Origin: a virus
Lineage: Duplodnaviria > Heunggongvirae > Uroviricota > Caudoviricetes
Reading direction: 5' to 3' (one strand)
DNA: 36,223 nucleotides
IMG/VR virus record: IMGVR_UViG_2778261231_000006
Span: 1 to 36,223 of that record
Below the pieces are notes generated by a model. The model had not been told where the DNA came from. It saw only the letters and a program-made list of their open reading frames with translations, and searched no databases. Shown here one piece after another: positions 7,047 through 32,061 of the stretch (position 1 is its first letter; the number at the start of each line of letters is the position of its first letter). The position numbers were made by a program, and so were the translations under genes.

Positions 7047-8237
7047 TTAATTGCTGTTAACCGAGGTGACCAGATTTGCCAGGTATTTATCGGTAATACG
7101 CTGGCGCAGGGTCAGGTTTTCAAGAGGAGGCACCGGTGTATAGTCGTAGTCGATATACAGTTTTCCTGCCTTGAGGGTTTCCGCATCGTTGGATTCTTCG
7201 CTGAACCAGCAGGTCGCATCCACGATATAGCCGTTTGTTTTCAGCTCACGGAATTTGGCATTAATGCCGTCAACGATGTCGCGAATCAGCGTTGCGGTGA
7301 TGGGCTTATCCACCGCCCACATGTGCGCCTCAGCCATCGTGTCGGCCAGCACCTGCGCAGTGCGGGTGTAGTTTTCAAAGAGGAACAGCGGGTCATCAGA
7401 GCAGGTACGGTTACCCCAGAAGCGGAAACCGTCGCGGCGAATCAGCGTTGTGACGCCTGACTCGTTAAGCAGGTCAGCATCGGTGCCGGACTCCTGCAAA
7501 TCCCAGAATACAGATGCGCTGATGCCGGTAACACCGTTTACCCCGACGTTGGACAGCGTTTTATGCCAGCCCTGCTCCTGGTCGATTTTAGCGCGCAGAC
7601 CCAGCGCACGGGCGGTGGCATACGCGGTGGCGGTGGTACTGGTGACCGTATCCCATGCGAGGAAATCCGGCCAGATGACCATCAGCTCACGCTGGCTGAA
7701 ATTCTGGCGGTAGGCTTTCACCTCGGAAATGGTCTTACAGCCCCATGCGCTGATATATCCGAAAGCGCGCAGCTTCTGACAGACTGATGCCAGTGCAACA
7801 GCCACCTCTTTGGTATCCAGCCCCGGCACACCAAGAATACGCGGTTTAACACCGGTTACCGACTCCGCCGCCAGCAGGGCTTTCAGTCCGGTGTACTGAC
7901 CGTTTTCGTCAGTGGTGCCGATAATATTGGAAACGGTCTGCGCGAGTTTCGTTTCCTCGTCATCACCGGTGCCGTCTTCCACGCGCACGACAACGGTGAC
8001 CGGTTTTGACTGGTCAGCGATGGCCTGCAACGATGCCGCCAGCGTGCCTTTTTTACCGGCCTTTGCAATTGCGCTCTGCACATTGGTAATCAACACCGGT
8101 TTATTGAGGGGGAAGGTTTCCGCATCTGCATCGCTGGCCGTGCAGACCATGCCGACAATGGCAGTGGATACGGTGGAAATGACGCGGGTGCCGTCGTTAA
8201 TCTCCAGCACCTGCACGCCGTGATGATAGTCACTCAT
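7047..8237 (-). CDS. FI: Contractile tail sheath protein gpFI
   Basis: 396 aa, MSDYHHGVQVLEINDGTRVISTVSTAIVGMVCTASDADAETFPLNKPVLI. Confidence 0.93.
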   Translation of the reverse strand: MSDYHHGVQVLEINDGTRVISTVSTAIVGMVCTASDADAETFPLNKPVLITNVQSAIAKAGKKGTLAASLQAIADQSKPVTVVVRVEDGTGDDEETKLAQTVSNIIGTTDENGQYTGLKALLAAESVTGVKPRILGVPGLDTKEVAVALASVCQKLRAFGYISAWGCKTISEVKAYRQNFSQRELMVIWPDFLAWDTVTSTTATAYATARALGLRAKIDQEQGWHKTLSNVGVNGVTGISASVFWDLQESGTDADLLNESGVTTLIRRDGFRFWGNRTCSDDPLFLFENYTRTAQVLADTMAEAHMWAVDKPITATLIRDIVDGINAKFRELKTNGYIVDATCWFSEESNDAETLKAGKLYIDYDYTPVPPLENLTLRQRITDKYLANLVTSVNSN

Positions 8238-8341
8238 CCGTTTAACTCCGTGGTTAATGGGTGCAACTATTTTCCGTTGGGCAGAGCATGAGACGCTATT
8301 TGACCTGTCTGGTCAGTGGATGAAACAACAGATACAGAAAA

Positions 8342-8360
8342 GGCGGGCAATTCGCCCGCC
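8342..8360 (-). terminator. GC-rich hairpin (GGCGGGC-loop-GCCCGCC) with weak U-tract upstream of FI; candidate terminator isolating the cargo island from the FI operon
   Basis: Perfect 7-bp stem; on the minus strand followed by TTTTCTGTATC; U-tract is weak. Confidence 0.35.
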
Positions 8361-8742
8361 TGTCCTAGTTTGTACTCACTCATTTTCCGACTGACAATTT
8401 ACATAGCCAAAACGCTATCAAATCTGACAGTCTGCTTTGAGCGAGGAGCGGAAGTTCGCAATTTTGATCACCGCACAAGGCGCATTACTAGTATTACTAT
8501 GTTTTGTTAAAAGGAAATTTTTCTATGCCTAAACACGAAAGTTACAATGGCATTTTTATTTCAAATAACGGTCAATTCTCCGGATTTCTTAAAGTTTCGG
8601 CTCCCCAGTGCCCCGGGGCGTCAGCCCAATTGCGCTAACCGGCAGAGGCGGCATTTCGGGCCTGGCGGCTTGGCCTTTGTAAGAAAAAAACGACCTAAAT
8701 CAAATTTTTGCAGTTAAATACTGCGCGAGTCAATAATTAATA

Positions 8743-8771
8743 TTGTTTTAGATAATTACTTTTAATATATT
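8743..8771 (+). promoter_or_regulatory. Candidate sigma70 promoter for the 604-aa cargo gene (-35 TTGTTT 8743..8748, 17-bp spacer, -10 TATATT 8766..8771)
   Basis: Hexamers and spacing read by eye; the AT-rich context makes chance matches likely. Confidence 0.25.
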
Positions 8772-8883
8772 ACGTGTTAATGTAATCTTCTGAATCTAAA
8801 CTATTCCATTTCCCATTTGATTTTCTCTGAAGTGCTGTCTAGTTGTTCTTGAATAATCAAATGTTAATTATAAGGACATCAAA

Positions 8884-10698
8884 GTGACTAAATATATTTT
8901 CAGTATCAATGATTTAATTTTATCAAAAAATGCACAATTTTTTAAGATAAAAAAACCTTTATCTAGAAATAAAATAAAAAATCTATTTAGAAGCATATCC
9001 TCGATAAAAGATGGTGTCTTTCTTATAAATAAAATTAAATCTGAAGTTGTTGTAGATAATGGGAATTTAACTTACTCTTTGGTGTCTTTTAAAGTTCTAG
9101 AAGAGCCTTCATTTCTACAAGGCACTAGCATTTCAGAAAGCAAGTATGCGTATCTAATGATCTTGGAGGTTCAGGATTTTTTAATAATTTCGAAGAAAAA
9201 TGTTGATGCAATTGAAAGCGAGTTGGAAAGGTTCATAGAATACTTTGAGTTTGATAAATTTTCAAATTTTAATGGAAGGCTGAATCCTGAGTATGAAAAA
9301 ATTAGCATGAGGAATATGTCACTGTCAGATTCAGTGATAAGAAATAGAACAGTGGAAGCAAAAAATCTAAGTGGCATTCTTTCTCCTAACACGACTGGAC
9401 GTTCAATTCCAGGGACATTTAGAGTCAAGACAGGAAATGACATATTTACTTTAACACCAAATACTTCACGAATAGGCTACAAAGATAAAAAAGTGGATTT
9501 TTTTAATTTCTGCTCATGGGCAATAGCTACAGTAAATGAATTATCTAACACAGCCTCTTTGTCAAGTAAGCTAATGGCAGGTTTCTCTTCCCCTATTACT
9601 TTGAGTGAATTATTAGCAAAAAAAGTCAAGCCAAAAGCTATTTTTATAGATCTTAGCGAGTTGGATGATATGGTGCGTGGCACGTCCCATACTTTTACAC
9701 TAACAAAAAATGTGCCTCATGGAACGGTGACGTTAAGTTCTGTTGAACTTGACAAATTTTTCAATGGATTTAAATCATCATATTTCTTAGATGGTGAAAC
9801 GCTAACCAATTTAAGATTCAAATTCAAATGTCGTCTGAGATTCAATACTAAGGTTGTGACTATAGTATCCAAATATCTCGATGGTATAATGATTAGTGAA
9901 AATGGTTCTCAGTTAATGTCGCTTAGTAAATATATTAACAAGTTTAAGCCATTCACTATAACCTTCGATTCCCCCCAATATTGCTATCATGGTCGTTCGT
10001 GTTTTGAAGATAAAACGATGTTAAATAATTTGAATATTTTCCTGTCCGTTTTTGATGATAGCTTTGATTTTTCAACAATCAGATCGGAAAAAGAGAAAGA
10101 TGACAAACAATCTTATCCAGAAAATATTAAAAGATTTCCAGTGAGATCGCTATTTAGACGAGTGGAGAATATCTATTCAAATAAAGATGCTATTGTAATT
10201 TGTGATGATATGAATGATGAGTGGGCCGATCATATTGTGCTGGATATCACGACAGGAAATCCATCCATAAAGTTTATTCATTCTAAATATATTAAAAAAG
10301 AGAGCTATGGCGCCAGTAAATTTCATGAAGTTATAAGTCAAGCTTTAAAAAATATTGGCAGATTACATTCACCAAAAGAACTTTACCTTGATAAATATGA
10401 TAATGAATGGTCTTCAAAATATTTACAAACGCAGATTAGTAGAATTAGACCAATTGACACTTCCAGGAATGACATTGAGTTAGCTCTTGACAAAATTAAT
10501 GAGAGTCCGAAAACTAGTAGGGAGTTAATATTAGCTGCTCCATTTTTAAGAAAAAAAATGTTAATCGATGAGGTGGAAATCATCAAGAGAAATCAGTCAG
10601 CCAAACCTTATACTGTTCAGCTAATCTGGCTTATAAATACATTTTTGAGTGCATGTGTTGAGTACGGAGTAAAACCCAGCATTCTATGTAAGAAGTGA
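8884..10698 (+). CDS. Hypothetical 604-aa cargo protein at the Z/fun moron site; soluble, function unknown
   Basis: Long uninterrupted ORF in AT-rich DNA, GTG start 7 nt after AAGGA, antisense to the flanking late genes; no Walker A seen by eye; acidic segment VICDDMNDEWADHIVLD...IHSK around residue 440. Confidence 0.8.
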   Translation: MTKYIFSINDLILSKNAQFFKIKKPLSRNKIKNLFRSISSIKDGVFLINKIKSEVVVDNGNLTYSLVSFKVLEEPSFLQGTSISESKYAYLMILEVQDFLIISKKNVDAIESELERFIEYFEFDKFSNFNGRLNPEYEKISMRNMSLSDSVIRNRTVEAKNLSGILSPNTTGRSIPGTFRVKTGNDIFTLTPNTSRIGYKDKKVDFFNFCSWAIATVNELSNTASLSSKLMAGFSSPITLSELLAKKVKPKAIFIDLSELDDMVRGTSHTFTLTKNVPHGTVTLSSVELDKFFNGFKSSYFLDGETLTNLRFKFKCRLRFNTKVVTIVSKYLDGIMISENGSQLMSLSKYINKFKPFTITFDSPQYCYHGRSCFEDKTMLNNLNIFLSVFDDSFDFSTIRSEKEKDDKQSYPENIKRFPVRSLFRRVENIYSNKDAIVICDDMNDEWADHIVLDITTGNPSIKFIHSKYIKKESYGASKFHEVISQALKNIGRLHSPKELYLDKYDNEWSSKYLQTQISRIRPIDTSRNDIELALDKINESPKTSRELILAAPFLRKKMLIDEVEIIKRNQSAKPYTVQLIWLINTFLSACVEYGVKPSILCKK

Positions 10699-10770
10699 AT
10701 TGAATTATCCAAGGCTGGCTGTTTATGTAGGCCAGCTTGCTTTCTTTAATATTTAGGAATTTGATTTAAA

Positions 10771-11353
10771 GTGAAATTAGGCCCATTTATTAACATTGCT
10801 AACTCTAACCAAATTCCTAAATCCCATCTTCCGCCTCACAATTCCTTAATTCAAACTAGACGTTTCCCGCGCAATACAAAGCAATCTCTTGATAACAATG
10901 GTATGGAACTGAACGTTGAGTGCCTAGTAGGTGAAGAAGATGGGGTATATGGCCTGATATTTGAGCCCTGAGGACTGGCGCATAGAAACAAAGATTATAA
11001 TATTGCCATCGATTATATCATTGGACGACTTATTGATTCCGGGGTAAACAAAGGCGTTGTGTATTTGGCCTCATCATCAACCGGAAGACATATACCATCT
11101 ATAGCGGAAAGAAAAATACATCCTGATGATGTAATTTTCTTTAGTGGGAAACTACCCTTCCGATATTTCCCAAAAAATGTGTATGTATCAGACTCATTTG
11201 AACAGTACTGCTAAAAAGGATGCACCATCAGGGAACAGAACTGAGCGAGTAATGATAAATGTTCCTAGTGTTAATAGTGCTGAATTTTGGAAACCTATCA
11301 TCTACGGAGATACATCAGTGCTTTTCGAGCCACTAATGATGAGAGTGTTCTAA
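10771..11353 (+). pseudogene. Disrupted ORF chain (in-frame TGA at 10969..10971, then apparent +1/-1 shift near the A6 run 11172..11177); likely pseudogene
   Basis: Frame of the 10771 ORF stays open past the TGA (…GLIFEP*GLAHRNKDYNIAIDYIIGRLIDSG…FPKNVYVSDSFEQYC) and a one-base change at the A6 run joins it to the 11144..11353 ORF. Confidence 0.4.
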
Positions 11354-11474
11354 GTAAAATGGTCAGTAAGCTAATATAAATTCCTTTGAACGAGTCCGAG
11401 GGACATAAAAAACTGGAACATTAGAAAGAGTTCAGAAGGTTTATATTCGGGATCCTGCTGTTAAATCTTGTGTA

Positions 11475-11711
11475 TTGCAAGGGAATAAGGGCGTTTGTGA
11501 AAGATGTAGTGAAAATACACCGTTCTTAATAAATGGCGATATCCCATATCTCGAAGTGTATCATGTGATACCTCTTTCTTTATCTGGTGCTGACACCATA
11601 AGCAATTGTGTTGCATTATGCCCGAATTGCCATCGGGCATTGCATTACAGTCAAAATTCGGAAGAGCTGATTGAGGAACTTTATATAAACATAAAAAGAT
11701 TGCAAAGATGA
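11475..11711 (+). CDS. HNH-nuclease motif ORF, probably a C-terminal fragment (open frame extends back to 11409 with no ATG/GTG)
   Basis: …RDPAVKSCVLQGNKGVCERCSENTPFLINGDIPYLEVYHVIPLSLSGADTISNCVALCPNCHRALH: CxxC…H…N…CxxCH…H pattern typical of HNH; TTG start only. Confidence 0.5.
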   Translation: MQGNKGVCERCSENTPFLINGDIPYLEVYHVIPLSLSGADTISNCVALCPNCHRALHYSQNSEELIEELYINIKRLQR

Positions 11712-11833
11712 GTGTTCCGTTTTGCTGGGATATTTATAGGTGAGCAACGTCCCCTCCTGGCACAGAGCGGACTCTCAGATTAGGCTTTACTCTGTGCCAT
11801 AGATATGTAAGCTCACACCAGAGCTCATACAAC

Positions 11834-12361
11834 TTATTGCGGCATTTCCGGCCATTCAGGATTTGCAGGATCCACACGACTGACCAGAACACTGTAGCGT
11901 TCCCATGCCTCCAGTCGACTGCGCTCCTCATCTGTTGCCATATTCAGCCTGACAGCGCGCTCCAGCGGCAAAATCACGGATTCAGCATCTGCAAGAAGTC
12001 TGGCTTTCCGATTTTCTGCCTGCTGCTGCAATTCCTCTGCCGTATAAATTCGTTTAATCACTGTACCGTCCTTAAACATCCAGTTCCCTGAAATGTCCGC
12101 CCGTCGGTTAGCAGTAATATCCGGCACTTCAACAACACTTAATCCATCCGGTCTGATAGCTGTCACATCCTTTTCCACATAGCGGATAATATTATCTTTG
12201 TCGTACGCTATTTTTATCGTGTCATCAGCAAAATACTTTTGTTCTTCGTACCAGTTCTTACCATCTTCTGAAAAAAACCAGACAACATCAAAGTCCTTTG
12301 TCAATTGATATTGTTCAACCGTTTTTGGATTACCTGCCATTATATTTATCAAATGCTGCAT
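11834..12361 (-). CDS. G: Tail fibre assembly chaperone gpG
   Basis: 175 aa, immediately downstream of [45 protein letters not shown]. Confidence 0.9.
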
Positions 12362-17189: not shown

Positions 17190-18263
17190 ATGAACACTTA
17201 CTTTTTCTCATCAAAAACAATGAAAGAATTGTTCAAAGATTATCTGGTCTTTTTGAACACGCTGACACCCAGCACAACCTTTGAATCAAACAGAAACAAA
17301 ATAATTGCTCAAGCAATAGACTTCATTTCTGAAAACCCAGAAGATTGGGACAAAAAATCCCAGTACAACATTGTCAGGATTGGTAATACCTTTACAAGCT
17401 TATTAAAAGAAAAGGGAGAGGATAACAACAGCATCAATTTTATATTCACTTGTTTTTTTAGATTTATTATTGAGCCAAGTATTCTCTCTCCTGAGACAGA
17501 TACTTTCTTTTCACCACTAAAAACCATCAAGGATTTCGCGCTGTATAACTATAATGAATTCGATGAACAAAGCAGAGCACAGATAGACTTTTCTCTTAGA
17601 GAACTACCATTAGCAATGGTTAAAGAAGTTTTAAGCTCAGGCAATGTGGACACATATAAAAAATATATTGATAGTTTAAGCGAAGGTCGTCAATTTTTCG
17701 AAAAATGCGAGTCCTTTTTAAAAGAACAACATACCAAAATAGAGTCAATTAAAGAATCATTGAAAGGGTATGAGGTCGCATTTAATTTTGTTGGATTGTT
17801 TGAAGGCTTTAATTCACTTGGCAAAAAGAAAGATCGTGAAATTTTACTATCAAGAATAATCCTTGTCATCTTAGCTATAATCATCCCATCCCCGCTGATA
17901 TACTATGGAGTGCATAAATTACCAACTCTCGAAACGACAAATGCTGCCACATATTTCATGTCAGCACTACCTTTTGCATCAGTCACATTGATTTTCATTT
18001 ATTACTTTAGAGTTGTACTGATAAATCACATATCGTTACGAACTCAGATTATGCAAATAGAACTCAGAAAGAGCCTTTGTCAGTTTATTCAGAGTTATAG
18101 CGACTATTCCTCAGAGATAAGGAAAAACAATCCGGAAGCGCTTTCAAAATTTGAAGATGTCGTATTTTCGAACATCATGCTATCCGATGATAAGATACCA
18201 TCTACATTTGATGGCATAGAGCAAATAGCATCGTTAATCAATTCATTAAAAAATGGCAAGTAA
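17190..18263 (+). CDS. Hypothetical 357-aa cargo protein with two predicted C-terminal transmembrane helices, at the S/V moron site
   Basis: AT-rich ORF antisense to the late operons; hydrophobic stretches ILLSRIILVILAIIIPSPLIYYGV and ATYFMSALPFASVTLIFIYYFRVVLI; own terminator downstream. Confidence 0.75.
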   Translation: MNTYFFSSKTMKELFKDYLVFLNTLTPSTTFESNRNKIIAQAIDFISENPEDWDKKSQYNIVRIGNTFTSLLKEKGEDNNSINFIFTCFFRFIIEPSILSPETDTFFSPLKTIKDFALYNYNEFDEQSRAQIDFSLRELPLAMVKEVLSSGNVDTYKKYIDSLSEGRQFFEKCESFLKEQHTKIESIKESLKGYEVAFNFVGLFEGFNSLGKKKDREILLSRIILVILAIIIPSPLIYYGVHKLPTLETTNAATYFMSALPFASVTLIFIYYFRVVLINHISLRTQIMQIELRKSLCQFIQSYSDYSSEIRKNNPEALSKFEDVVFSNIMLSDDKIPSTFDGIEQIASLINSLKNGK

Positions 18264-24739: not shown

Positions 24740-26512
24740 ATGACCATCACCACAGACACCACTCTTTTACACGACCCGCGTCGTCAGGCGGCGCTGCTGT
24801 ACTGGCAGGGATTTTCCGTGCCGCAGATTGCCGCCATGTTGCAGATGAAACGCCCGACGGTGCAGAGCTGGAAACAGCGCGACGGCTGGGACAGCGTTGC
24901 CCCCATCAGCCGTGTCGAAATGAGTCTGGAAGCGCGGCTGACCCAGCTCATCATCAAACCGCAGAAAACCGGCGGTGACTTCAAGGAAATTGACCTGCTG
25001 GGACGCCAGATTGAACGACTGGCGCGGGTCAACCGCTACAGTCAGACCGGCAACGAGGCAGACCTTAATCCGAACGTCGCTAACCGCAACAAAGGCGGGC
25101 GCCGCAAACCGAAAAAGAATTTTTTCAGCGACGAAGCCATCGAAAAGCTGGAGCAGATTTTCTTTGAGCAGTCTTTCGAATATCAGTTGCACTGGTATCG
25201 CGCCGGGCTTGAGCACCGCATCCGCGATATCCTGAAATCCCGCCAGATTGGCGCAACGTTTTATTTTTCCCGCGAGGCGCTGCTGCGCGCCCTGAAAACC
25301 GGCCATAACCAGATTTTTCTGTCGGCCAGTAAAACGCAGGCGTATGTGTTCCGCGAATACATCATCGCCTTTGCCCGTCTGGTTGACGTTGACCTGACCG
25401 GTGACCCGATTGTCCTGGGCAATAACGGCGCAAAACTGATTTTTCTCGGCACCAACTCCAACACCGCGCAGAGCCATAACGGCGACCTGTACGTCGATGA
25501 GATTTTCTGGATCCCGAATTTTCAGGTACTGCGTAAGGTGGCATCAGGTATGGCCTCACAGAGTCACCTGCGTTCGACCTATTTCTCCACCCCGTCCACG
25601 CTGGCGCACGACGCCTACCCGTTCTGGTCGGGTGAACTGTTTAACCGGGGACGCGCCAGCGCCGCTGAACGCGTGGAAATCGACGTCAGTCATAACGCAC
25701 TTGCCGGAGGTCTTCTCTGTGCGGACGGCCAGTGGCGGCAGATTGTCACCATTGAGGACGCCCTGAAAGGCGGCTGCACGCTGTTCGACATTGAGCAGCT
25801 CAAACGCGAAAACAGCGCCGACGATTTTAAAAACCTGTTCATGTGTGAATTTGTTGACGACAAGGCGTCGGTGTTCCCGTTCGAGGAGTTGCAACGCTGC
25901 ATGGTCGACACGCTGGAAGAATGGGAAGACTATGCGCCGTTTGCCGCCAATCCGTTCGGCTCACGCCCGGTCTGGATTGGTTACGACCCGTCACACCGTG
26001 GCGACAGCGCCGGATGCGTGGTACTGGCACCGCCGGTGGTTGCCGGTGGCAAATTCAGAATACTTGAGCGTCACCAGTGGAAAGGCATGGACTTTGCCAC
26101 CCAGGCGGAATCCATCCGCAAACTCACCGAAAAATACAACGTCGAATACATCGGTATTGATGCCACCGGCCTCGGTGTCGGCGTGTTCCAGCTCGTGCGC
26201 TCGTTCTATCCTGCCGCGCGCGACATCCGCTACACGCCGGAAATGAAAACCGCAATGGTGCTCAAGGCAAAAGACGTTATCCGCCGTGGCTGTCTGGAAT
26301 ACGACGTCAGCGCCACCGACATCACCAGCTCGTTTATGGCTATCCGCAAGACCATGACCAGCAGCGGACGCAGCGCCACCTATGAGGCCAGCCGCAGCGA
26401 GGAAGCCAGCCACGCCGACCTCGCCTGGGCGACCATGCACGCCCTGTTAAATGAGCCACTCACCGCCGGTATCAGCACCCCGCTGACATCCACCATTCTG
26501 GAGTTTTACTGA
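24740..26512 (+). CDS. P: Terminase large (ATPase) subunit gpP
   Basis: MTITTDTTLLHDPRRQAALLYWQGFSVPQIAAMLQMKRPTVQSWKQRDGWD; 590 aa from ATG 24740; divergent from O. Confidence 0.93.
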   Translation: MTITTDTTLLHDPRRQAALLYWQGFSVPQIAAMLQMKRPTVQSWKQRDGWDSVAPISRVEMSLEARLTQLIIKPQKTGGDFKEIDLLGRQIERLARVNRYSQTGNEADLNPNVANRNKGGRRKPKKNFFSDEAIEKLEQIFFEQSFEYQLHWYRAGLEHRIRDILKSRQIGATFYFSREALLRALKTGHNQIFLSASKTQAYVFREYIIAFARLVDVDLTGDPIVLGNNGAKLIFLGTNSNTAQSHNGDLYVDEIFWIPNFQVLRKVASGMASQSHLRSTYFSTPSTLAHDAYPFWSGELFNRGRASAAERVEIDVSHNALAGGLLCADGQWRQIVTIEDALKGGCTLFDIEQLKRENSADDFKNLFMCEFVDDKASVFPFEELQRCMVDTLEEWEDYAPFAANPFGSRPVWIGYDPSHRGDSAGCVVLAPPVVAGGKFRILERHQWKGMDFATQAESIRKLTEKYNVEYIGIDATGLGVGVFQLVRSFYPAARDIRYTPEMKTAMVLKAKDVIRRGCLEYDVSATDITSSFMAIRKTMTSSGRSATYEASRSEEASHADLAWATMHALLNEPLTAGISTPLTSTILEFY

Positions 26513-27546
26513 TGAGTAAGAAAAAAGGGAAAACACCGCGACCTGCGGCAAAAACAATCACCGCCAGCGCCCCGAAAATGGAAGCATTCACCTTTGGCGA
26601 GCCGGTGCCGGTACTCGACCGCCGTGACATTCTGGATTACGTCGAGTGCATCAGTAACGGCAGATGGTATGAGCCACCAGTCAGCTTTACCGGTCTGGCA
26701 AAAAGCCTGCGTGCTGCCGTGCATCACAGCTCACCGATTTACGTCAAACGCAATATTCTGGCTTCAACGTTTATCCCGCATCCGTGGCTTTCGCAACAGG
26801 ATTTCAGCCGCTTTGTGCTGGATTTTCTGGTGTTCGGTAATGCGTTTCTGGAAAAGCGTTACAGCACCACCGGTAAGGTCATCAGACTGGAAACCTCACC
26901 GGCAAAATATACCCGCCGTGGTGTGGAAGAGGATGTTTACTGGTGGGTGCCGTCCTTCAACGAGCCGACAGCCTTCGCACCCGGCTCCGTGTTTCACCTG
27001 CTGGAGCCGGATATTAATCAGGAGCTGTACGGCCTGCCGGAATATCTCAGCGCCCTTAACTCTGCCTGGCTGAATGAGTCGGCCACGCTGTTCCGCCGCA
27101 AGTATTACGAAAACGGCGCTCATGCCGGATACATCATGTACGTCACCGATGCCGTGCAGGATCGCAACGATATCGAAATGCTTCGCGAAAACATGGTTAA
27201 GTCGAAAGGCCGCAATAACTTTAAAAATCTGTTTCTCTATGCCCCACAGGGGAAAGCCGACGGCATTAAAATTATCCCGCTCAGTGAAGTGGCAACGAAG
27301 GACGATTTTTTTAATATCAAAAAAGCCAGCGCCGCTGACCTGCTGGACGCGCATCGCATCCCCTTTCAGTTGATGGGGGGCAAGCCGGAGAACGTCGGGT
27401 CGCTGGGTGATATTGAGAAAGTGGCAAAGGTCTTTGTCCGCAATGAGCTTATCCCGTTACAGGACAGGATCCGCGAGATAAACGGCTGGCTCGGTCAGGA
27501 GGTCATCCGATTTAAAAACTACTCACTGGACACTGACAACGGCTGA
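26512..27546 (+). CDS. Q: Portal protein gpQ
   Basis: 344 aa, MSKKKGKTPRPAAKTITASAPKMEAFTFGEPVPVLDRRDILDYVECISNGRWYEPP. Confidence 0.93.
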   Translation: MSKKKGKTPRPAAKTITASAPKMEAFTFGEPVPVLDRRDILDYVECISNGRWYEPPVSFTGLAKSLRAAVHHSSPIYVKRNILASTFIPHPWLSQQDFSRFVLDFLVFGNAFLEKRYSTTGKVIRLETSPAKYTRRGVEEDVYWWVPSFNEPTAFAPGSVFHLLEPDINQELYGLPEYLSALNSAWLNESATLFRRKYYENGAHAGYIMYVTDAVQDRNDIEMLRENMVKSKGRNNFKNLFLYAPQGKADGIKIIPLSEVATKDDFFNIKKASAADLLDAHRIPFQLMGGKPENVGSLGDIEKVAKVFVRNELIPLQDRIREINGWLGQEVIRFKNYSLDTDNG

Positions 27547-27897: not shown

Positions 27898-28794
27898 CTA
27901 TGATTTCGACACAACTATTTTCCCCAAATCAAAACTAAATTCGACATCCCCATTTACGATATTTTCATTTGTCACATGCTCATCAAAAAGGTCACTAACA
28001 TCATACCCCGACTGAAACACTGGGCTCATGATAGCCACGTCGGTGAATGGCTCTTTTTCATGTGTTATATAATATTGACCATAAACATTTGCAGATTCAT
28101 CTGCATCATTAAGACTAAGGACTGTTTTTGCTTTGACTTCAGGCATCAGAGAAAAATCAATATTATTCAACAAACACAGTAAGATGCCTGCTATTGTTCT
28201 CCTGTTATTATCAAGCGGCATCAAGTCCACCCCTGGAATCTCCTTCCGAAGCAATATTTTCAGCTCATTAAATAAAGAGTCGAACTTAATTGCGTCAGAA
28301 CAATTGAGTAACGACAAAGCTTCATTAATCATTCGCCCTTCATTGGAACCAATTTCTGATGTTAACTTACAAACACCATCATTAACAATATACGATTTTT
28401 TGTTATTAAGCTTCTTCCTCGCTGTAATTACCTGCCCCCCCTTTAAGTTTAACTTCTCCTTTAAAAACTCATCACTGAACATTCTTAATTGCAGTCTGAT
28501 TAATGTAGGTAAGTATTTCGGGTATTCATTTAACTCTGGTTTAACAGCATGCTTGTCGCGTCCAAATTTTAAACTTAATAACAAATGATTCCTCAGCATG
28601 ATATCCTTTATCTCGCCTTGATCTCTCCGATGATTATGGGCAACAAAACTCCCAATTTCAAAAATACACTTGGGCGCACTCGGCAACTCACGGGCCGTAA
28701 CAAAAAGAACATCAATATCACTATCAGTGAAACTCCCATCCTTTAATCTTCTCAACACTCTCTCTATTCTTGAGATTGCTTTACTTTTATTCAT
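27898..28794 (-). CDS. Hypothetical 298-aa cargo protein at the cos-proximal (tin/old) moron site; function unknown
   Basis: AT-rich ORF MNKSKAISRIERVLRRLKDGSFTDSDIDVLFVTARELPSAPKCIFEIGSF…; ATG with upstream AAGG/GAAAGAA; no TM helix or nucleotide-binding motif seen by eye. Confidence 0.75.
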   Translation of the reverse strand: MNKSKAISRIERVLRRLKDGSFTDSDIDVLFVTARELPSAPKCIFEIGSFVAHNHRRDQGEIKDIMLRNHLLLSLKFGRDKHAVKPELNEYPKYLPTLIRLQLRMFSDEFLKEKLNLKGGQVITARKKLNNKKSYIVNDGVCKLTSEIGSNEGRMINEALSLLNCSDAIKFDSLFNELKILLRKEIPGVDLMPLDNNRRTIAGILLCLLNNIDFSLMPEVKAKTVLSLNDADESANVYGQYYITHEKEPFTDVAIMSPVFQSGYDVSDLFDEHVTNENIVNGDVEFSFDLGKIVVSKS

Positions 28795-29120: not shown

Positions 29121-29336
29121 TCAACAACGTGGTAGCAGTGCAATTTTAGACTGTTCTATATCGTTAAACCGCACGTAATTATCCCGGACTATTTCGGCAC
29201 ACCCGACCAACTCGTCGGGCGTCAGATTTTCGTTGACCATAATCTGCTGTAGACGGTGAACAATAGCCATCAGCTTGATATTTTTAGTGTTATGTTGCGG
29301 TATCTCGCCTAGTATTCTGTGCATTATCCAAGCCAC
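29121..29336 (-). CDS. Small hypothetical protein (71 aa), start overlaps the end of the upstream DUF3850-like gene
   Basis: ORF MAWIMHRILGEIPQHNTKNIKLMAIVHRLQQIMVNENLTPDELVGCAEIVRDNYVRF; overlap suggests coupling; no homology recognised. Confidence 0.35.
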   Translation of the reverse strand: MAWIMHRILGEIPQHNTKNIKLMAIVHRLQQIMVNENLTPDELVGCAEIVRDNYVRFNDIEQSKIALLPRC

Positions 29337-29779
29337 CCGTTTTGCTTTGCACGCTCAATCTGTTCATCTGAATAGTTCCATGCTCCATCCGTGGCAACCA
29401 TTGCCCCGCCAGACATCCCCGTCTCTGGTTCATACATAACAGCAAGGCCGAGCTGATGCATAATTTCATGATTAATTCTGAATACCAGACCACGCTCACT
29501 AAGTTCTTTCCAGTTCACAATCTCATATGCGCCTGTATTAAGCAGCTCAATACTTAGCAAGACATAATCTTCCAGCCAGTCTGACAGGTCAGTAACATCT
29601 GTTATCCGGGCTTCAACCTTTCGCCCCGTATACACACCCTGCACCCATTCATGCAAAATCAACGTGTCCCCGCGCTCATAATTACGGTCATTTTTCCGAA
29701 ACTCTGCGCGTTTCTTTCCTTCCAGCACAAGGTCGAAATATTTTGCGTGCAGCTTTACCTCGTGAATTTTTGCCATCAT
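29324..29779 (-). CDS. DUF3850/ASCH-like domain protein with C-terminal HExxH motif, translationally coupled to A
   Basis: MMAKIHEVKLHAKYFDLVLEGKKRAEFRKNDRNYERGDTLILHEW resembles DUF3850; INHEIMHQLG contains HExxH; ATGATGG start overlaps the A stop TGA. Confidence 0.65.
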   Translation of the reverse strand: MMAKIHEVKLHAKYFDLVLEGKKRAEFRKNDRNYERGDTLILHEWVQGVYTGRKVEARITDVTDLSDWLEDYVLLSIELLNTGAYEIVNWKELSERGLVFRINHEIMHQLGLAVMYEPETGMSGGAMVATDGAWNYSDEQIERAKQNGWLG

Positions 29780-32061
29780 GTCCACTCCATTACTGTTGAG
29801 AATCCCGGCCACTCATCAGCGACCGGATACGTGAATTTTTTCCCGTCATAATTTACGGTTGCCCCACGCGCCAGCGCCTCAATCTCCCGTCGCTGCGGCC
29901 TGATACCGTTCTGAGCAAGGTCAACGCGGATACGGGTAATTTGCGTTCGTTCCGACCGGGTCAGTCTGGCCGATGGCGCTATTTCATGTGGTTTTAACAG
30001 GCTTCCGTTTCTCTGCTGACGATTTGGTGTTCTCAGTCCGTGTTTTAATGCACCTCTGAGCACCCTCACGACCTCTGGCTCATTCCATTCGATAACACCG
30101 TCATCAACCAGATTAAGCACGGCTGCGGCATGTTCAGAAGGTGTGGGAACCGGTAACGAAGTATCACCACCGGTGAGCTTTCTACAGTTATTGACAGGAC
30201 TCCGAGGCGCGGCGATGCCGCTTTTTAAAGTCAAAGGCTCAACGACCGGAACTTTCGGCACAATGCGCCAGTCCGTGGTTCTGGTGATATGAATATGACG
30301 CGCGCCGAGATGCGGCGCGTAAATGCCGACCACTCTCTCGACCTCTTCCTCGTACTCGTTAACGTCATCCGACGGGCTACGGGCGACTCTGACAGTCTGA
30401 CAATCGCGCGGAACATTTGCCCCACCCTGCGCGCTGATATACAACGCAAAATCACCACTGTCTGCGGCAGCGCGAGCAGCCTCGACGCGTTCGTCAAACT
30501 CATCAGCAATACTGACGCCGCGAGGCAATTTGCGTAGTTCACGGTAAGCCCCCATTGTCGGCAGTCCAACCGTTTTAAATTGCGGGATGCGCCACGTTGA
30601 CGCCCATGCGGTAACAGCCGCGGCAGTATCTTTAAGCGGCTTACCGGTATCGTTATCGAGCTGACCATCCAGTGCATAGCCGTCGATATTTTTTGAAATG
30701 TATTTCGCGATATATCCCGCAGCACCGCCCCGGTTAAGGTGCTTTGCCTGAAAACGGTTTCGCGCGGCTCCTCTTTCGTCACCATCCTCTTTGAGCGCAT
30801 AGCGACGCATGATTTCGATAATCTGGTTACGCTGGCGTGGATTACAAAAAAGCATCATATGCCAGTGCGGCGTTCCGTCGTGGTGTGGCTCGACGACACG
30901 CAAACCGTAGACCTGTAAATCATTATCCTTGAATGCCGTGCGCATCAGGCTCCAGATGCGGCAGAGATAACGCTGCGCATCCTTTGGATTAAATGCCTCA
31001 TCGTTCCAGCCGTGATTAAGCTGAACGGTTTTACTTTCGCCTTTTCTGACCTGACGAGTCGGGTGATACTTTGACGGCGCGGTCAGCGTGATAAACATCC
31101 CCACATCACCCTCTGCGGCGGCGTAACGCTCAATTCCAGCGATGGTGTTCATCAGCTCCATCCGGCGAATTTCAGGATTAGAAATACTGCCCATCACCTT
31201 ACTGATAAGGTCGATGCGCTCGCCGGTTTCCCTGTTTTCAAGGTCACACGATTTAAGAAATTCCAGATTTGCCTGGCGGCGTGCACGCACATCCCGAATG
31301 GCATGTTTACTGGCATAAGGAGAACGGTCTTTATTGACCTCCCCGACAGCTATCAGTAACGCCTCATGCCAGCGCATACGCTGGCCTTTAAGCTGATGAG
31401 TCCACCACTCATCGTTAAACAGACGGGCAATGGCAGAATATGCCTGCCTCGTGGTCATCTGTCCTTTACGGTATTTTTTCCAGTAGAGAGGGGAAATATT
31501 GAAAGCACGTGCAGCGCCAGCAACATGACCATAGAGGTGAGCCTGCGCCTCATCCGTAAACAGCGATTCTTTCTCGCCATGCGCATCCACCCAGGCATCG
31601 CAGAGTTCCTCATACATCATGAAAAGCTGCGATGAGATACGGGCAGCAAACTTTTTCAGCTCCTTGTCATTCATTCCCGGCAGGCGCGCATACTGGTCGC
31701 GCTCTGCCAGAAACAGCAACGACGCATCGGTGTTCATTTCATGGCGCTGATTCACGCGCTCAATGCGCGGCCATAAACGACGCTGAAAAGTGGATGTGAG
31801 GAAATAAAACCCGTGCACCGGGCTTTTATTGCGCCTGATGTAGTCATAGCGTGAAGTAAACAGCGAGCGCAAAAAGTAAGGCAGGCGGTTAATCGTGGAT
31901 AAAACACCTTGCACCTGACGCATCTCATCACGTGTAAGAGGTCTTTCGCGCCCGACAGCCTCGCGTGGCGCGTTCCATGCATAAGCACCGGTAAACATCT
32001 TACCGGTGCCTGCGGCAAATGCTGACGGAGGGACAAAACGCCCGGAGGCTTTAACGGCCAT
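29776..32061 (-). CDS. A: Replication initiation protein gpA (rolling-circle nickase)
   Basis: MAVKASGRFVPPSAFAAGTGKMFTGAYAWNAPREAVGRERPLTRDEMRQ; 761 aa from internal ATG 32061. Confidence 0.93.
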   Translation of the reverse strand: MAVKASGRFVPPSAFAAGTGKMFTGAYAWNAPREAVGRERPLTRDEMRQVQGVLSTINRLPYFLRSLFTSRYDYIRRNKSPVHGFYFLTSTFQRRLWPRIERVNQRHEMNTDASLLFLAERDQYARLPGMNDKELKKFAARISSQLFMMYEELCDAWVDAHGEKESLFTDEAQAHLYGHVAGAARAFNISPLYWKKYRKGQMTTRQAYSAIARLFNDEWWTHQLKGQRMRWHEALLIAVGEVNKDRSPYASKHAIRDVRARRQANLEFLKSCDLENRETGERIDLISKVMGSISNPEIRRMELMNTIAGIERYAAAEGDVGMFITLTAPSKYHPTRQVRKGESKTVQLNHGWNDEAFNPKDAQRYLCRIWSLMRTAFKDNDLQVYGLRVVEPHHDGTPHWHMMLFCNPRQRNQIIEIMRRYALKEDGDERGAARNRFQAKHLNRGGAAGYIAKYISKNIDGYALDGQLDNDTGKPLKDTAAAVTAWASTWRIPQFKTVGLPTMGAYRELRKLPRGVSIADEFDERVEAARAAADSGDFALYISAQGGANVPRDCQTVRVARSPSDDVNEYEEEVERVVGIYAPHLGARHIHITRTTDWRIVPKVPVVEPLTLKSGIAAPRSPVNNCRKLTGGDTSLPVPTPSEHAAAVLNLVDDGVIEWNEPEVVRVLRGALKHGLRTPNRQQRNGSLLKPHEIAPSARLTRSERTQITRIRVDLAQNGIRPQRREIEALARGATVNYDGKKFTYPVADEWPGFSTVMEWT

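Follow-up and report, generated by a model that had tools for sequence, protein, structure and literature searches.

Introduction

The slot between the tail-sheath gene FI and the tail-fibre assembly gene G of phage P2, the Z/fun region, belongs to a pair of variable P2 loci in which anti-phage genes have been reported, and defence systems have likewise been described inside P2 tail genes. GenBank entries AJ512676-AJ512685 ("P2-ECxx proviral Z-region") annotate left and right inverted repeats around "putative lysogenic conversion" open reading frames (ORFs); the entries were reportedly deposited with Nilsson, Karlsson and Haggard-Ljungquist 2004. Here we analyse the cargo of this slot in a P2-like prophage of Escherichia coli, the 36,223-nucleotide (nt) IMG/VR record IMGVR_UViG_2778261231_000006 (taken at its full length and called the window below), where an AT-rich island encodes a 604-amino-acid (aa) protein followed by the remains of an HNH nuclease gene. 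The island shares with the GenBank entries the G/FI position, the repeats and the presence of AT-rich foreign ORFs antisense to the late genes, whereas its cargo differs: the 604-aa protein is unlike the 233-aa cargo protein of Peduovirus P2.

The described systems with which the 604-aa protein is best compared are single-protein defence nucleases of the PD-(D/E)xK type with an N-terminal sensor, represented by Shedu SduA, together with HamA, the nuclease subunit of Hachiman. The HNH gene is homologous to mcrA of E. coli K-12, whose 277-aa product is a type IV (5-methylcytosine-directed) restriction endonuclease; K-12 mcrA lies in e14 adjoining pinE, with no partner gene beside it, and McrA acts as a single-gene enzyme. 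By family, the 604-aa protein falls among the PADLOC models named PDC ("phage defence candidate"; Payne et al. 2024, bioRxiv 10.1101/2024.01.29.577857). The source genes of these models were found embedded within BREX, DISARM or type I restriction-modification (RM) systems and then filtered, an approach of guilt by embedding (10.1101/2024.01.29.577857). We report that the cassette in the Z/fun slot of the window consists of one working gene and one dead gene, and that the island is plausibly a stand-alone defence nuclease with a dead passenger, not an undescribed two-gene system.

The 604-aa protein is a PDC-S71 member with a predicted nuclease domain

Over its full length, the 604-aa protein belongs to PADLOC family PDC-S71. 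Its residues 7-604 align with positions 3-589 of the 589-position profile (E 1.1e-218, 725.8 bits), and it is, as elsewhere in the family, a single-gene unit with no difference at the sequence level that would set it apart. An earlier reading made from the sequence alone (the sequence-only reading) had held the protein to be unassignable and undescribed, which this match to a published candidate family overturns; the PADLOC search that the same reading had proposed assigned the protein to PDC-S71 and the HNH fragments to mREase_IV. The gene and its parts are as follows.

8884-10698, + strand: intact 604-aa gene of PADLOC family PDC-S71 (RefSeq WP_000170427.1)
8884-10068, + strand: N-terminal region of about 395 aa with predicted alpha/beta domains and a weak RdgC-like fold, the putative DNA-binding or sensor part
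10141-10695, + strand: predicted C-terminal PD-(D/E)xK-type nuclease domain, aa about 420-604, in the AlphaFold2 (AF2) model
10204-10287, + strand: motif core CDDMNDEWADH...FIHSK, within the C-terminal domain

The ORF has a GTG start and an AAGGA Shine-Dalgarno sequence. PDC-S71 comprises 162 clusters at 90% identity; at 50% identity we collected 990 representatives with E values up to 1e-3 and, in 372 cases, below 1e-30. Almost every one is 580-620 aa long and matched over its full length. Searches of Pfam, NCBIfam and PHROGs with the 604-aa protein returned noise only, and sequence searches of the PDB, with the single sequence as well as with the family profile, returned no match. A comparison with P2 Fun(Z), also proposed in the sequence-only reading, gave no similarity (BLASTP E 13) against the 233-aa Z-region protein of the Peduovirus P2 record NC_070905, which we take to be Fun(Z), a label that the record does not carry.

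In the AF2 model the C-terminal part contains a restriction-endonuclease-like alpha/beta core fold, and residues D442, E446, D449 and K468 are invariant in 50 distant PDC-S71 members. On this basis the protein is predicted to carry a C-terminal PD-(D/E)xK nuclease fold, and it is the 604-aa protein itself that would act as the nuclease at this locus. It shows no similarity to the PADLOC or Pfam models of Shedu SduA and Hachiman HamA, and its motif has the form D..E..D...HxK, whereas that of the two comparison proteins is the canonical D...ExK. The N-terminal parts differ as well, Shedu SduA having a clamp where the 604-aa protein is RdgC-like.

Over the N-terminal 300-400 aa, the predicted fold resembles phage and E. 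coli RdgC, a recombination-associated protein that binds DNA and forms rings; the resemblance is weak and is the sole structural signal that recurred. It has no counterpart in Pfam or in profile-profile comparison: the RdgC profile (PF04381) matches 0 of 35 PDC-S71 members at E up to 10, the same Pfam scan of all 35 yields weak DUF4722 matches only, and hhalign of the family against a shallow RdgC alignment gives a probability of 0.2%. RdgC has no nuclease domain, whereas the 604-aa protein has a predicted one, and a literature search found neither an RdgC-nuclease fusion nor an RdgC-like defence protein. We know of no described defence system that combines an RdgC-like module with a PD-(D/E)xK nuclease.

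The N-terminal region also includes a conserved loop, aa 146-172 (nt 9319-9399), that AlphaFold2 models with a predicted local distance difference test (pLDDT) score below 50; S148, I152, R155 and E158 are among the residues invariant in 35 homologues (36-94% identity to the window protein). The loop may be a flexible functional element or an interface.

Parts of PDC-S71 also occur in other protein contexts. A 1018-aa metagenomic protein (P0131) joins an N-terminal Peptidase_S41 domain to a PDC-S71 region, an arrangement that gave no functional clue, and a gene annotated as an RNA helicase on a Rhizobium plasmid (NZ_CP072869.1, H159) contains a match to residues 438-604, the nuclease part. Taken as domain arrangements, the two cases suggest that the PDC-S71 nuclease domain can be reused as a module.

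An autonomous and mobile gene kept by selection

Comparison of the 604-aa ORF with its copy in Providencia rettgeri (95.4% identical) revealed 0 indels, a synonymous divergence (dS) of 0.133 and a ratio of nonsynonymous to synonymous divergence (dN/dS) of 0.20. The gene is under purifying selection, and its ORF is intact in 9/9 E. coli copies and in the Providencia and Erwinia copies. Candidate expression signals lie on both sides of it.

8653-8883, + strand: conserved region upstream of the 604-aa gene (mean column identity 89% among the E. coli, Providencia and Erwinia copies)
8743-8771, + strand: candidate promoter TTGTTT-17 nt-TATATT, read by eye
10711-10748, + strand: intrinsic-terminator-like hairpin GCTGGC...GCCAGC with a T-rich tail, read from the sequence directly after the 604-aa ORF

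The Erwinia copy keeps the hairpin after the ORF, together with a T-run behind it; having a loop of more than 8 nt, the hairpin escaped the terminator scan. The copy in Erwinia sp. S63, which encodes a 92% identical protein, has in common with the window only positions 8653-10875, that is, the gene and its signals. The 604-aa gene is an autonomous, maintained and mobile unit, and a construct with the native signals would be compact, at about 2.1 kb.

When the ORFs lying up to 6 kb from PDC-S71 in 33 species were compared all against all, no neighbour proved to be conserved. Those neighbours to which a name could be given belong mostly to defence systems or mobile elements.

Draconibacterium: Gabija GajA/GajB
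Aliarcobacter: Hachiman HamA/HamB, directly downstream
Providencia: PvuRts1I-like/SRA, HNH_2 and Mrr genes, with an integrase at ssrA/smpB
Yersinia aldovae: integrase, helicase and an HNH_2 gene
Pseudomonas: HATPase_c_3 and FRG genes with integrases

In Aliarcobacter (L016, 7001-9759, and L017), the PDC-S71 homologue follows SbcCD-like genes on the same strand and stops 3 nt before hamA; it may be operonic with, or embedded in, the Hachiman locus.

The island occupies the Z/fun slot of a P2-like prophage

The tail genes that flank the island are both on the minus strand, and both island genes, the 604-aa ORF and the HNH ORF chain, are antisense to them.

7047-8237, - strand: tail sheath FI, flanking the island
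11834-12361, - strand: tail-fibre assembly G, flanking the island, with the tail-fibre gene H next

The GC content is 0.30-0.38 in 500-nt windows from 8501 to 11500, compared with 0.51-0.58 in the flanks, and positions 8400-11900 are 100% identical to E. coli O19:H7 730V1. The Peduovirus P2 record has an identical FI-cargo-G layout. What stands at this junction differs among P2-like prophages and includes a RES-family NAD+ phosphorylase, an FlxA-like protein and various hypothetical proteins. The island was acquired horizontally and is carried as cargo in the Z/fun slot of P2. Each feature that the sequence-only reading had described here was borne out: the AT-rich stretch, the 604-aa ORF, the broken HNH gene on the same strand, the antisense orientation to the late operons and the Z/fun site, whose cargo varies in other P2-like prophages. 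Its limits of 8690-11730 were slightly too narrow at the left edge; the cargo runs from 8454 to 11748 between two conserved inverted-repeat sites. An Rfam search of the island DNA found no match.

A stand-alone anti-phage nuclease is the favoured explanation

The 604-aa gene was proposed as a defence candidate in the sequence-only reading, and it is a credible one. A defence role is supported because the protein belongs to PDC-S71, the FI/G slot is variable, the gene is under purifying selection and autonomous, and defence genes adjoin its homologues. On balance we lean towards the explanation that the prophage expresses a stand-alone nuclease whose N-terminal part recognises some property of phage DNA and whose PD-(D/E)xK domain cuts. 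Under this explanation, the 604-aa protein would be expressed from the lysogen as a DNA-targeting anti-phage nuclease; about 400 aa at its N-terminus, which may form an RdgC-like module that encircles or binds DNA, would recognise a feature of invading or replicating phage DNA, and the C-terminal domain (D442, E446, D449, K468) would cut the recognised DNA. The phage genome would be destroyed directly, or the infection would be aborted if host DNA were also cut. Anti-phage activity, DNA as the substrate, the trigger, the role of the N-terminal part and expression in the lysogen are what we infer here. A more specific form, which would make PDC-S71 a single-protein immune nuclease with a new mechanism and in which an RdgC-like ring dimer closes around DNA, senses the state of phage DNA (free ends, recombination or replication intermediates) and licenses the attached PD-(D/E)xK nuclease, is offered tentatively, as possible and on the unlikely side.

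Several observations weigh against the favoured explanation. The PDC set was released as 145 untested candidates (10.1101/2024.01.29.577857), and a literature search found mention of neither PDC-S71 nor WP_000170427. The family is rare: it occurs in 9/5426 complete E. coli genomes and in 33/185,579 species representatives, with 0 matches in 50,697 phage genome records. A sigma-70 promoter scan of the island gave nothing above the expectation from shuffled sequence. In the predicted nuclease motif, the position two before K468 is H466 or variable, where the canonical residue would be D/E. Finally, the FlxA-like protein is Z-region cargo without a defence annotation. Most of the 33 species belong to the Gammaproteobacteria; Bacteroidota and Arcobacteraceae account for some, and Pyrinomonadaceae for a single genome. 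Plasmid records yielded four weak PDC-S71 matches.

Among the alternatives, the protein could be a solitary restriction enzyme resembling FokI or MspJI, its N-terminal part recognising a sequence or a modification and its C-terminal part cleaving. Such an enzyme would be type IV-like and modification-dependent because no methyltransferase is nearby: none adjoins the gene in the window, and none was called beside it in the Providencia locus. It would then not act by sensing DNA ends or DNA structure. The linked type IV enzymes are in keeping with this idea, namely the mcrA pseudogene here and the PvuRts1I-like/SRA, Mrr and HNH_2 genes in Providencia. However, the N-terminal part matches none of the known readers of modified bases (SRA, YTH/EVE, winged-helix) in the Pfam and PDB searches, and the only structural signal to recur is the RdgC-like one. 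We regard this alternative as rather unlikely.

A role outside defence, as a recombination or repair accessory, as a lysogenic-conversion factor or as a selfish, addictive nuclease that aids persistence of the cassette or prophage, appears to us unlikely. RdgC itself is a recombination-associated nucleoid protein, the GenBank Z-region entries label their cargo "putative lysogenic conversion protein", some of what the Z-region carries has no defence annotation, and the module described below spreads among islands. Yet the genomic neighbours of PDC-S71 are consistently defence genes, and membership of the PADLOC family derives from embedding in BREX, DISARM or RM loci. The distribution is patchy, rare and tied to mobile elements, unlike that of a repair gene, and no conserved cognate immunity or antitoxin gene stands beside PDC-S71.

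If the stand-alone nuclease does protect against phage, one of the 145 PADLOC candidates would become a validated system, and its RdgC-like DNA-binding module, joined to a PD-(D/E)xK nuclease, might represent a new type of sensor. No current view is overturned: the hotspot, the flanking repeats and the candidate family, like McrA, are already on record. Not on record are an experiment on PDC-S71 or a mechanism for it, the assignment of its nuclease domain, the possible RdgC-like module and its carriage in a P2 Z-region, of which we found no instance in the searchable literature.

The downstream HNH gene is a long-dead mcrA passenger

Downstream of the 604-aa gene lies a broken homologue of K-12 mcrA.

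10879-11711, + strand: pseudogene of a McrA-family type IV (5-methylcytosine-directed) HNH restriction endonuclease, within an ORF chain at 10771-11711

Its fragments span positions 4-277 of the 277-position PADLOC model mREase_IV PDLC03656, and the last of them matches Pfam HNH with E 1.1e-12. The pseudogene DNA is 68.5% identical to K-12 mcrA. A tblastn search with K-12 McrA covered residues 4-277 on three reading frames and located six lesions. The start codon is changed from ATG to AAG at 10879; W31 is replaced by a stop codon (TGA at 10969-10971), with a second in-frame stop near 11370; and the frame shifts from 3 to 1 near 11150, from 1 to 3 near 11335 and from 3 to 2 near 11405. Thus the island gene keeps homology to K-12 McrA over its full length, including the HNH motif and the 277-aa architecture, whereas it is itself a pseudogene of a diverged lineage. 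That lineage has intact 277-aa orthologues, which share 78-81% identity with the reading frame once it is repaired.

Over the module, the nine E. coli copies agree with the window at 99.8-100% identity and show the same short HNH annotation of 51 aa, and therefore share the broken mcrA. The Providencia copy is broken too: it has the W31 stop in common, so the inactivation is older than the spread of the module, whereas its other lesions are different. The E. coli and Providencia pseudogenes share 89.5% identity and are separated by seven indel events, and the intergenic DNA shares 90.6-91.5%; the pseudogene has diverged as much as intergenic DNA and about as much as the adjacent gene at synonymous sites. 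The mcrA sequence evolves at a neutral rate, and the gene is a long-dead passenger with no part in the function of the island.

These findings bear directly on the suggestion that the island encodes an effector and nuclease pair, in which the 604-aa protein, as effector or sensor, would have the HNH nuclease encoded after it as its partner. As such a pair would, the two genes adjoin each other on one strand and are co-mobile as one 3.34-kb module in E. coli and Providencia. However, the HNH gene has lost its start and gained two nonsense codons and three frameshifts, with the W31 stop common across genera and neutral evolution since, and the terminator-like hairpin separates the genes. McrA-like sequence occurs within 6 kb of PDC-S71 in 0/33 species-level loci, and the Erwinia copy has no mcrA. 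Nor do the closest intact McrA orthologues adjoin PDC-S71: the two contigs examined lack the family and place mcrA in other defence contexts, one next to a SymE and RT-SLATT pair, the other beside the TIR and caspase-like genes of a lambdoid prophage. Conserved co-occurrence of the two genes, which the sequence-only reading had wanted compared at the G/FI junction of P2-like prophages, is not seen in the loci covered here, and K-12 mcrA too has no partner gene beside it; we consider the two-gene idea effectively refuted and highly improbable. That the whole island, including the 604-aa ORF, is a functionless, decaying remnant is just as improbable: half of the module is a pseudogene and AT-rich DNA could be silenced by H-NS, but the ORF is intact in all the copies named above, with dN/dS 0.20 and 0 indels against the 7 indel events of the adjacent pseudogene, and the family keeps its catalytic-type residues without variation.

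According to a 2026 survey that covered the hotspots of P2 and P4, only about 2% of P2 pseudogenes resemble defence genes. Given that survey, a defence pseudogene in a P2 hotspot is mildly unusual, and the locus documents one, mcrA, of a kind reported there as rare. The mcrA leader contains a 16-nt inverted repeat (10751-10766 / 10807-10822, 94% complementary, 40 nt apart), which may be the relic of an operator or regulatory site.

The cassette is framed by the Z-region inverted repeats and recurs outside phages

The two genes travel together as a module whose ends coincide with hairpin sites inside the Z-region repeats.

8430-11772, + strand: 3.34-kb mobile module (PDC-S71 gene and mcrA pseudogene), with identical ends in unrelated contexts
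8363-8453: FI-side inverted repeat of the P2 Z-region, which maps to the "right inverted repeat" of AJ512683
8430-8453: hairpin site B, GTCTGCTTTGAGCGAGGAGCGGAA, preceded by the backbone sequence AAATCTGACA
11749-11861: G-side inverted repeat of the P2 Z-region, which maps to the "left inverted repeat" of AJ512683
11749-11772: hairpin site A, GTCCCCTCCTGGCACAGAGCGGAC, followed by TCTCAGATTAGG

The module is found 99.8% identical next to paoCD in E. coli, 99.8% identical in an integrative island of the Ag43/YeeP/CbtA type in E. coli and 92% identical in the ssrA/smpB island of Providencia rettgeri. The cassette has thus passed, with hardly any change, between a slot among phage tail genes and chromosomal islands outside phages, and the same short hairpin sites mark its borders in each. 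Its right end is a 24-nt palindrome, GTCC(C/G)CTCCTGGCACAGAGCGGAC (site A, GTCCGCTCCTGGCACAGAGCGGAC), and its left end is a related hairpin, GTCYGCT..GAGCGAGGAGCGGAA (site B). Just outside the module, the P2 backbone has AATCTGACA at one edge and TGTCAGATT at the opposite edge, two sequences that are inverted repeats of each other. Positions 11749-11863 and 8208-8444 of the window are 95-96% identical to the repeat-bearing ends of AJ512683.

The same sites also serve other cargo. Sites A and B frame a different cargo in another P2-like prophage (L022), and site A alone is present in three more; both sites likewise frame variable regions of CP4-like islands, where one cargo is a 1229-aa reverse transcriptase. 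Site A with its flank occurs in 2215/5426 E. coli genomes and is intergenic in nearly all of the matches listed. The framing repeats were found through comparison of loci, a generic inverted-repeat finder being swamped by chance matches in AT-rich DNA. Hairpin-framed cassettes were considered as a new type of mobile element, an idea that was dropped as a claim of novelty on finding the repeats already annotated in GenBank.

Besides the window, the loci noted for these sites are L003, L018, L019, L020 and L021-L024, and the framing at the P2 FI/G slot does not depend on the cargo. In CP4-44-like (Ag43/YeeP) islands, where the sites frame the variable segment, cassettes are apparently strung in the order site-cassette-site-cassette-site. 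An unoccupied site would form a 42-nt perfect palindrome. In the non-phage E. coli islands (L002, 6493-7809; L003, 6484-7800), the module is always followed by an opposite-strand DUF6602 gene and then by a copy of site A; the DUF6602 gene looks like a neighbouring cassette.

Other AT-rich inserts in the prophage

The window contains two more AT-rich inserts. The second (17190-18263, + strand, GC 0.34-0.36) lies among minus-strand tail genes and encodes a 357-aa protein that is hydrophobic in stretches near its C-terminal third and matches no PADLOC or Pfam model. The third (27898-28794, - strand, GC 0.34-0.37) lies just past a 344-aa ORF at 26512-27546, which we take to be the portal gene; the insert would then occupy the main P2 defence hotspot. 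Its 298-aa product has no PADLOC or Pfam match, and the gene may be the more obscure candidate in this prophage. Adjoining this third insert, at 29324-29812 on the - strand, is a gene for a 162-aa protein with ASCH/DUF3850 and DUF7415 domains.

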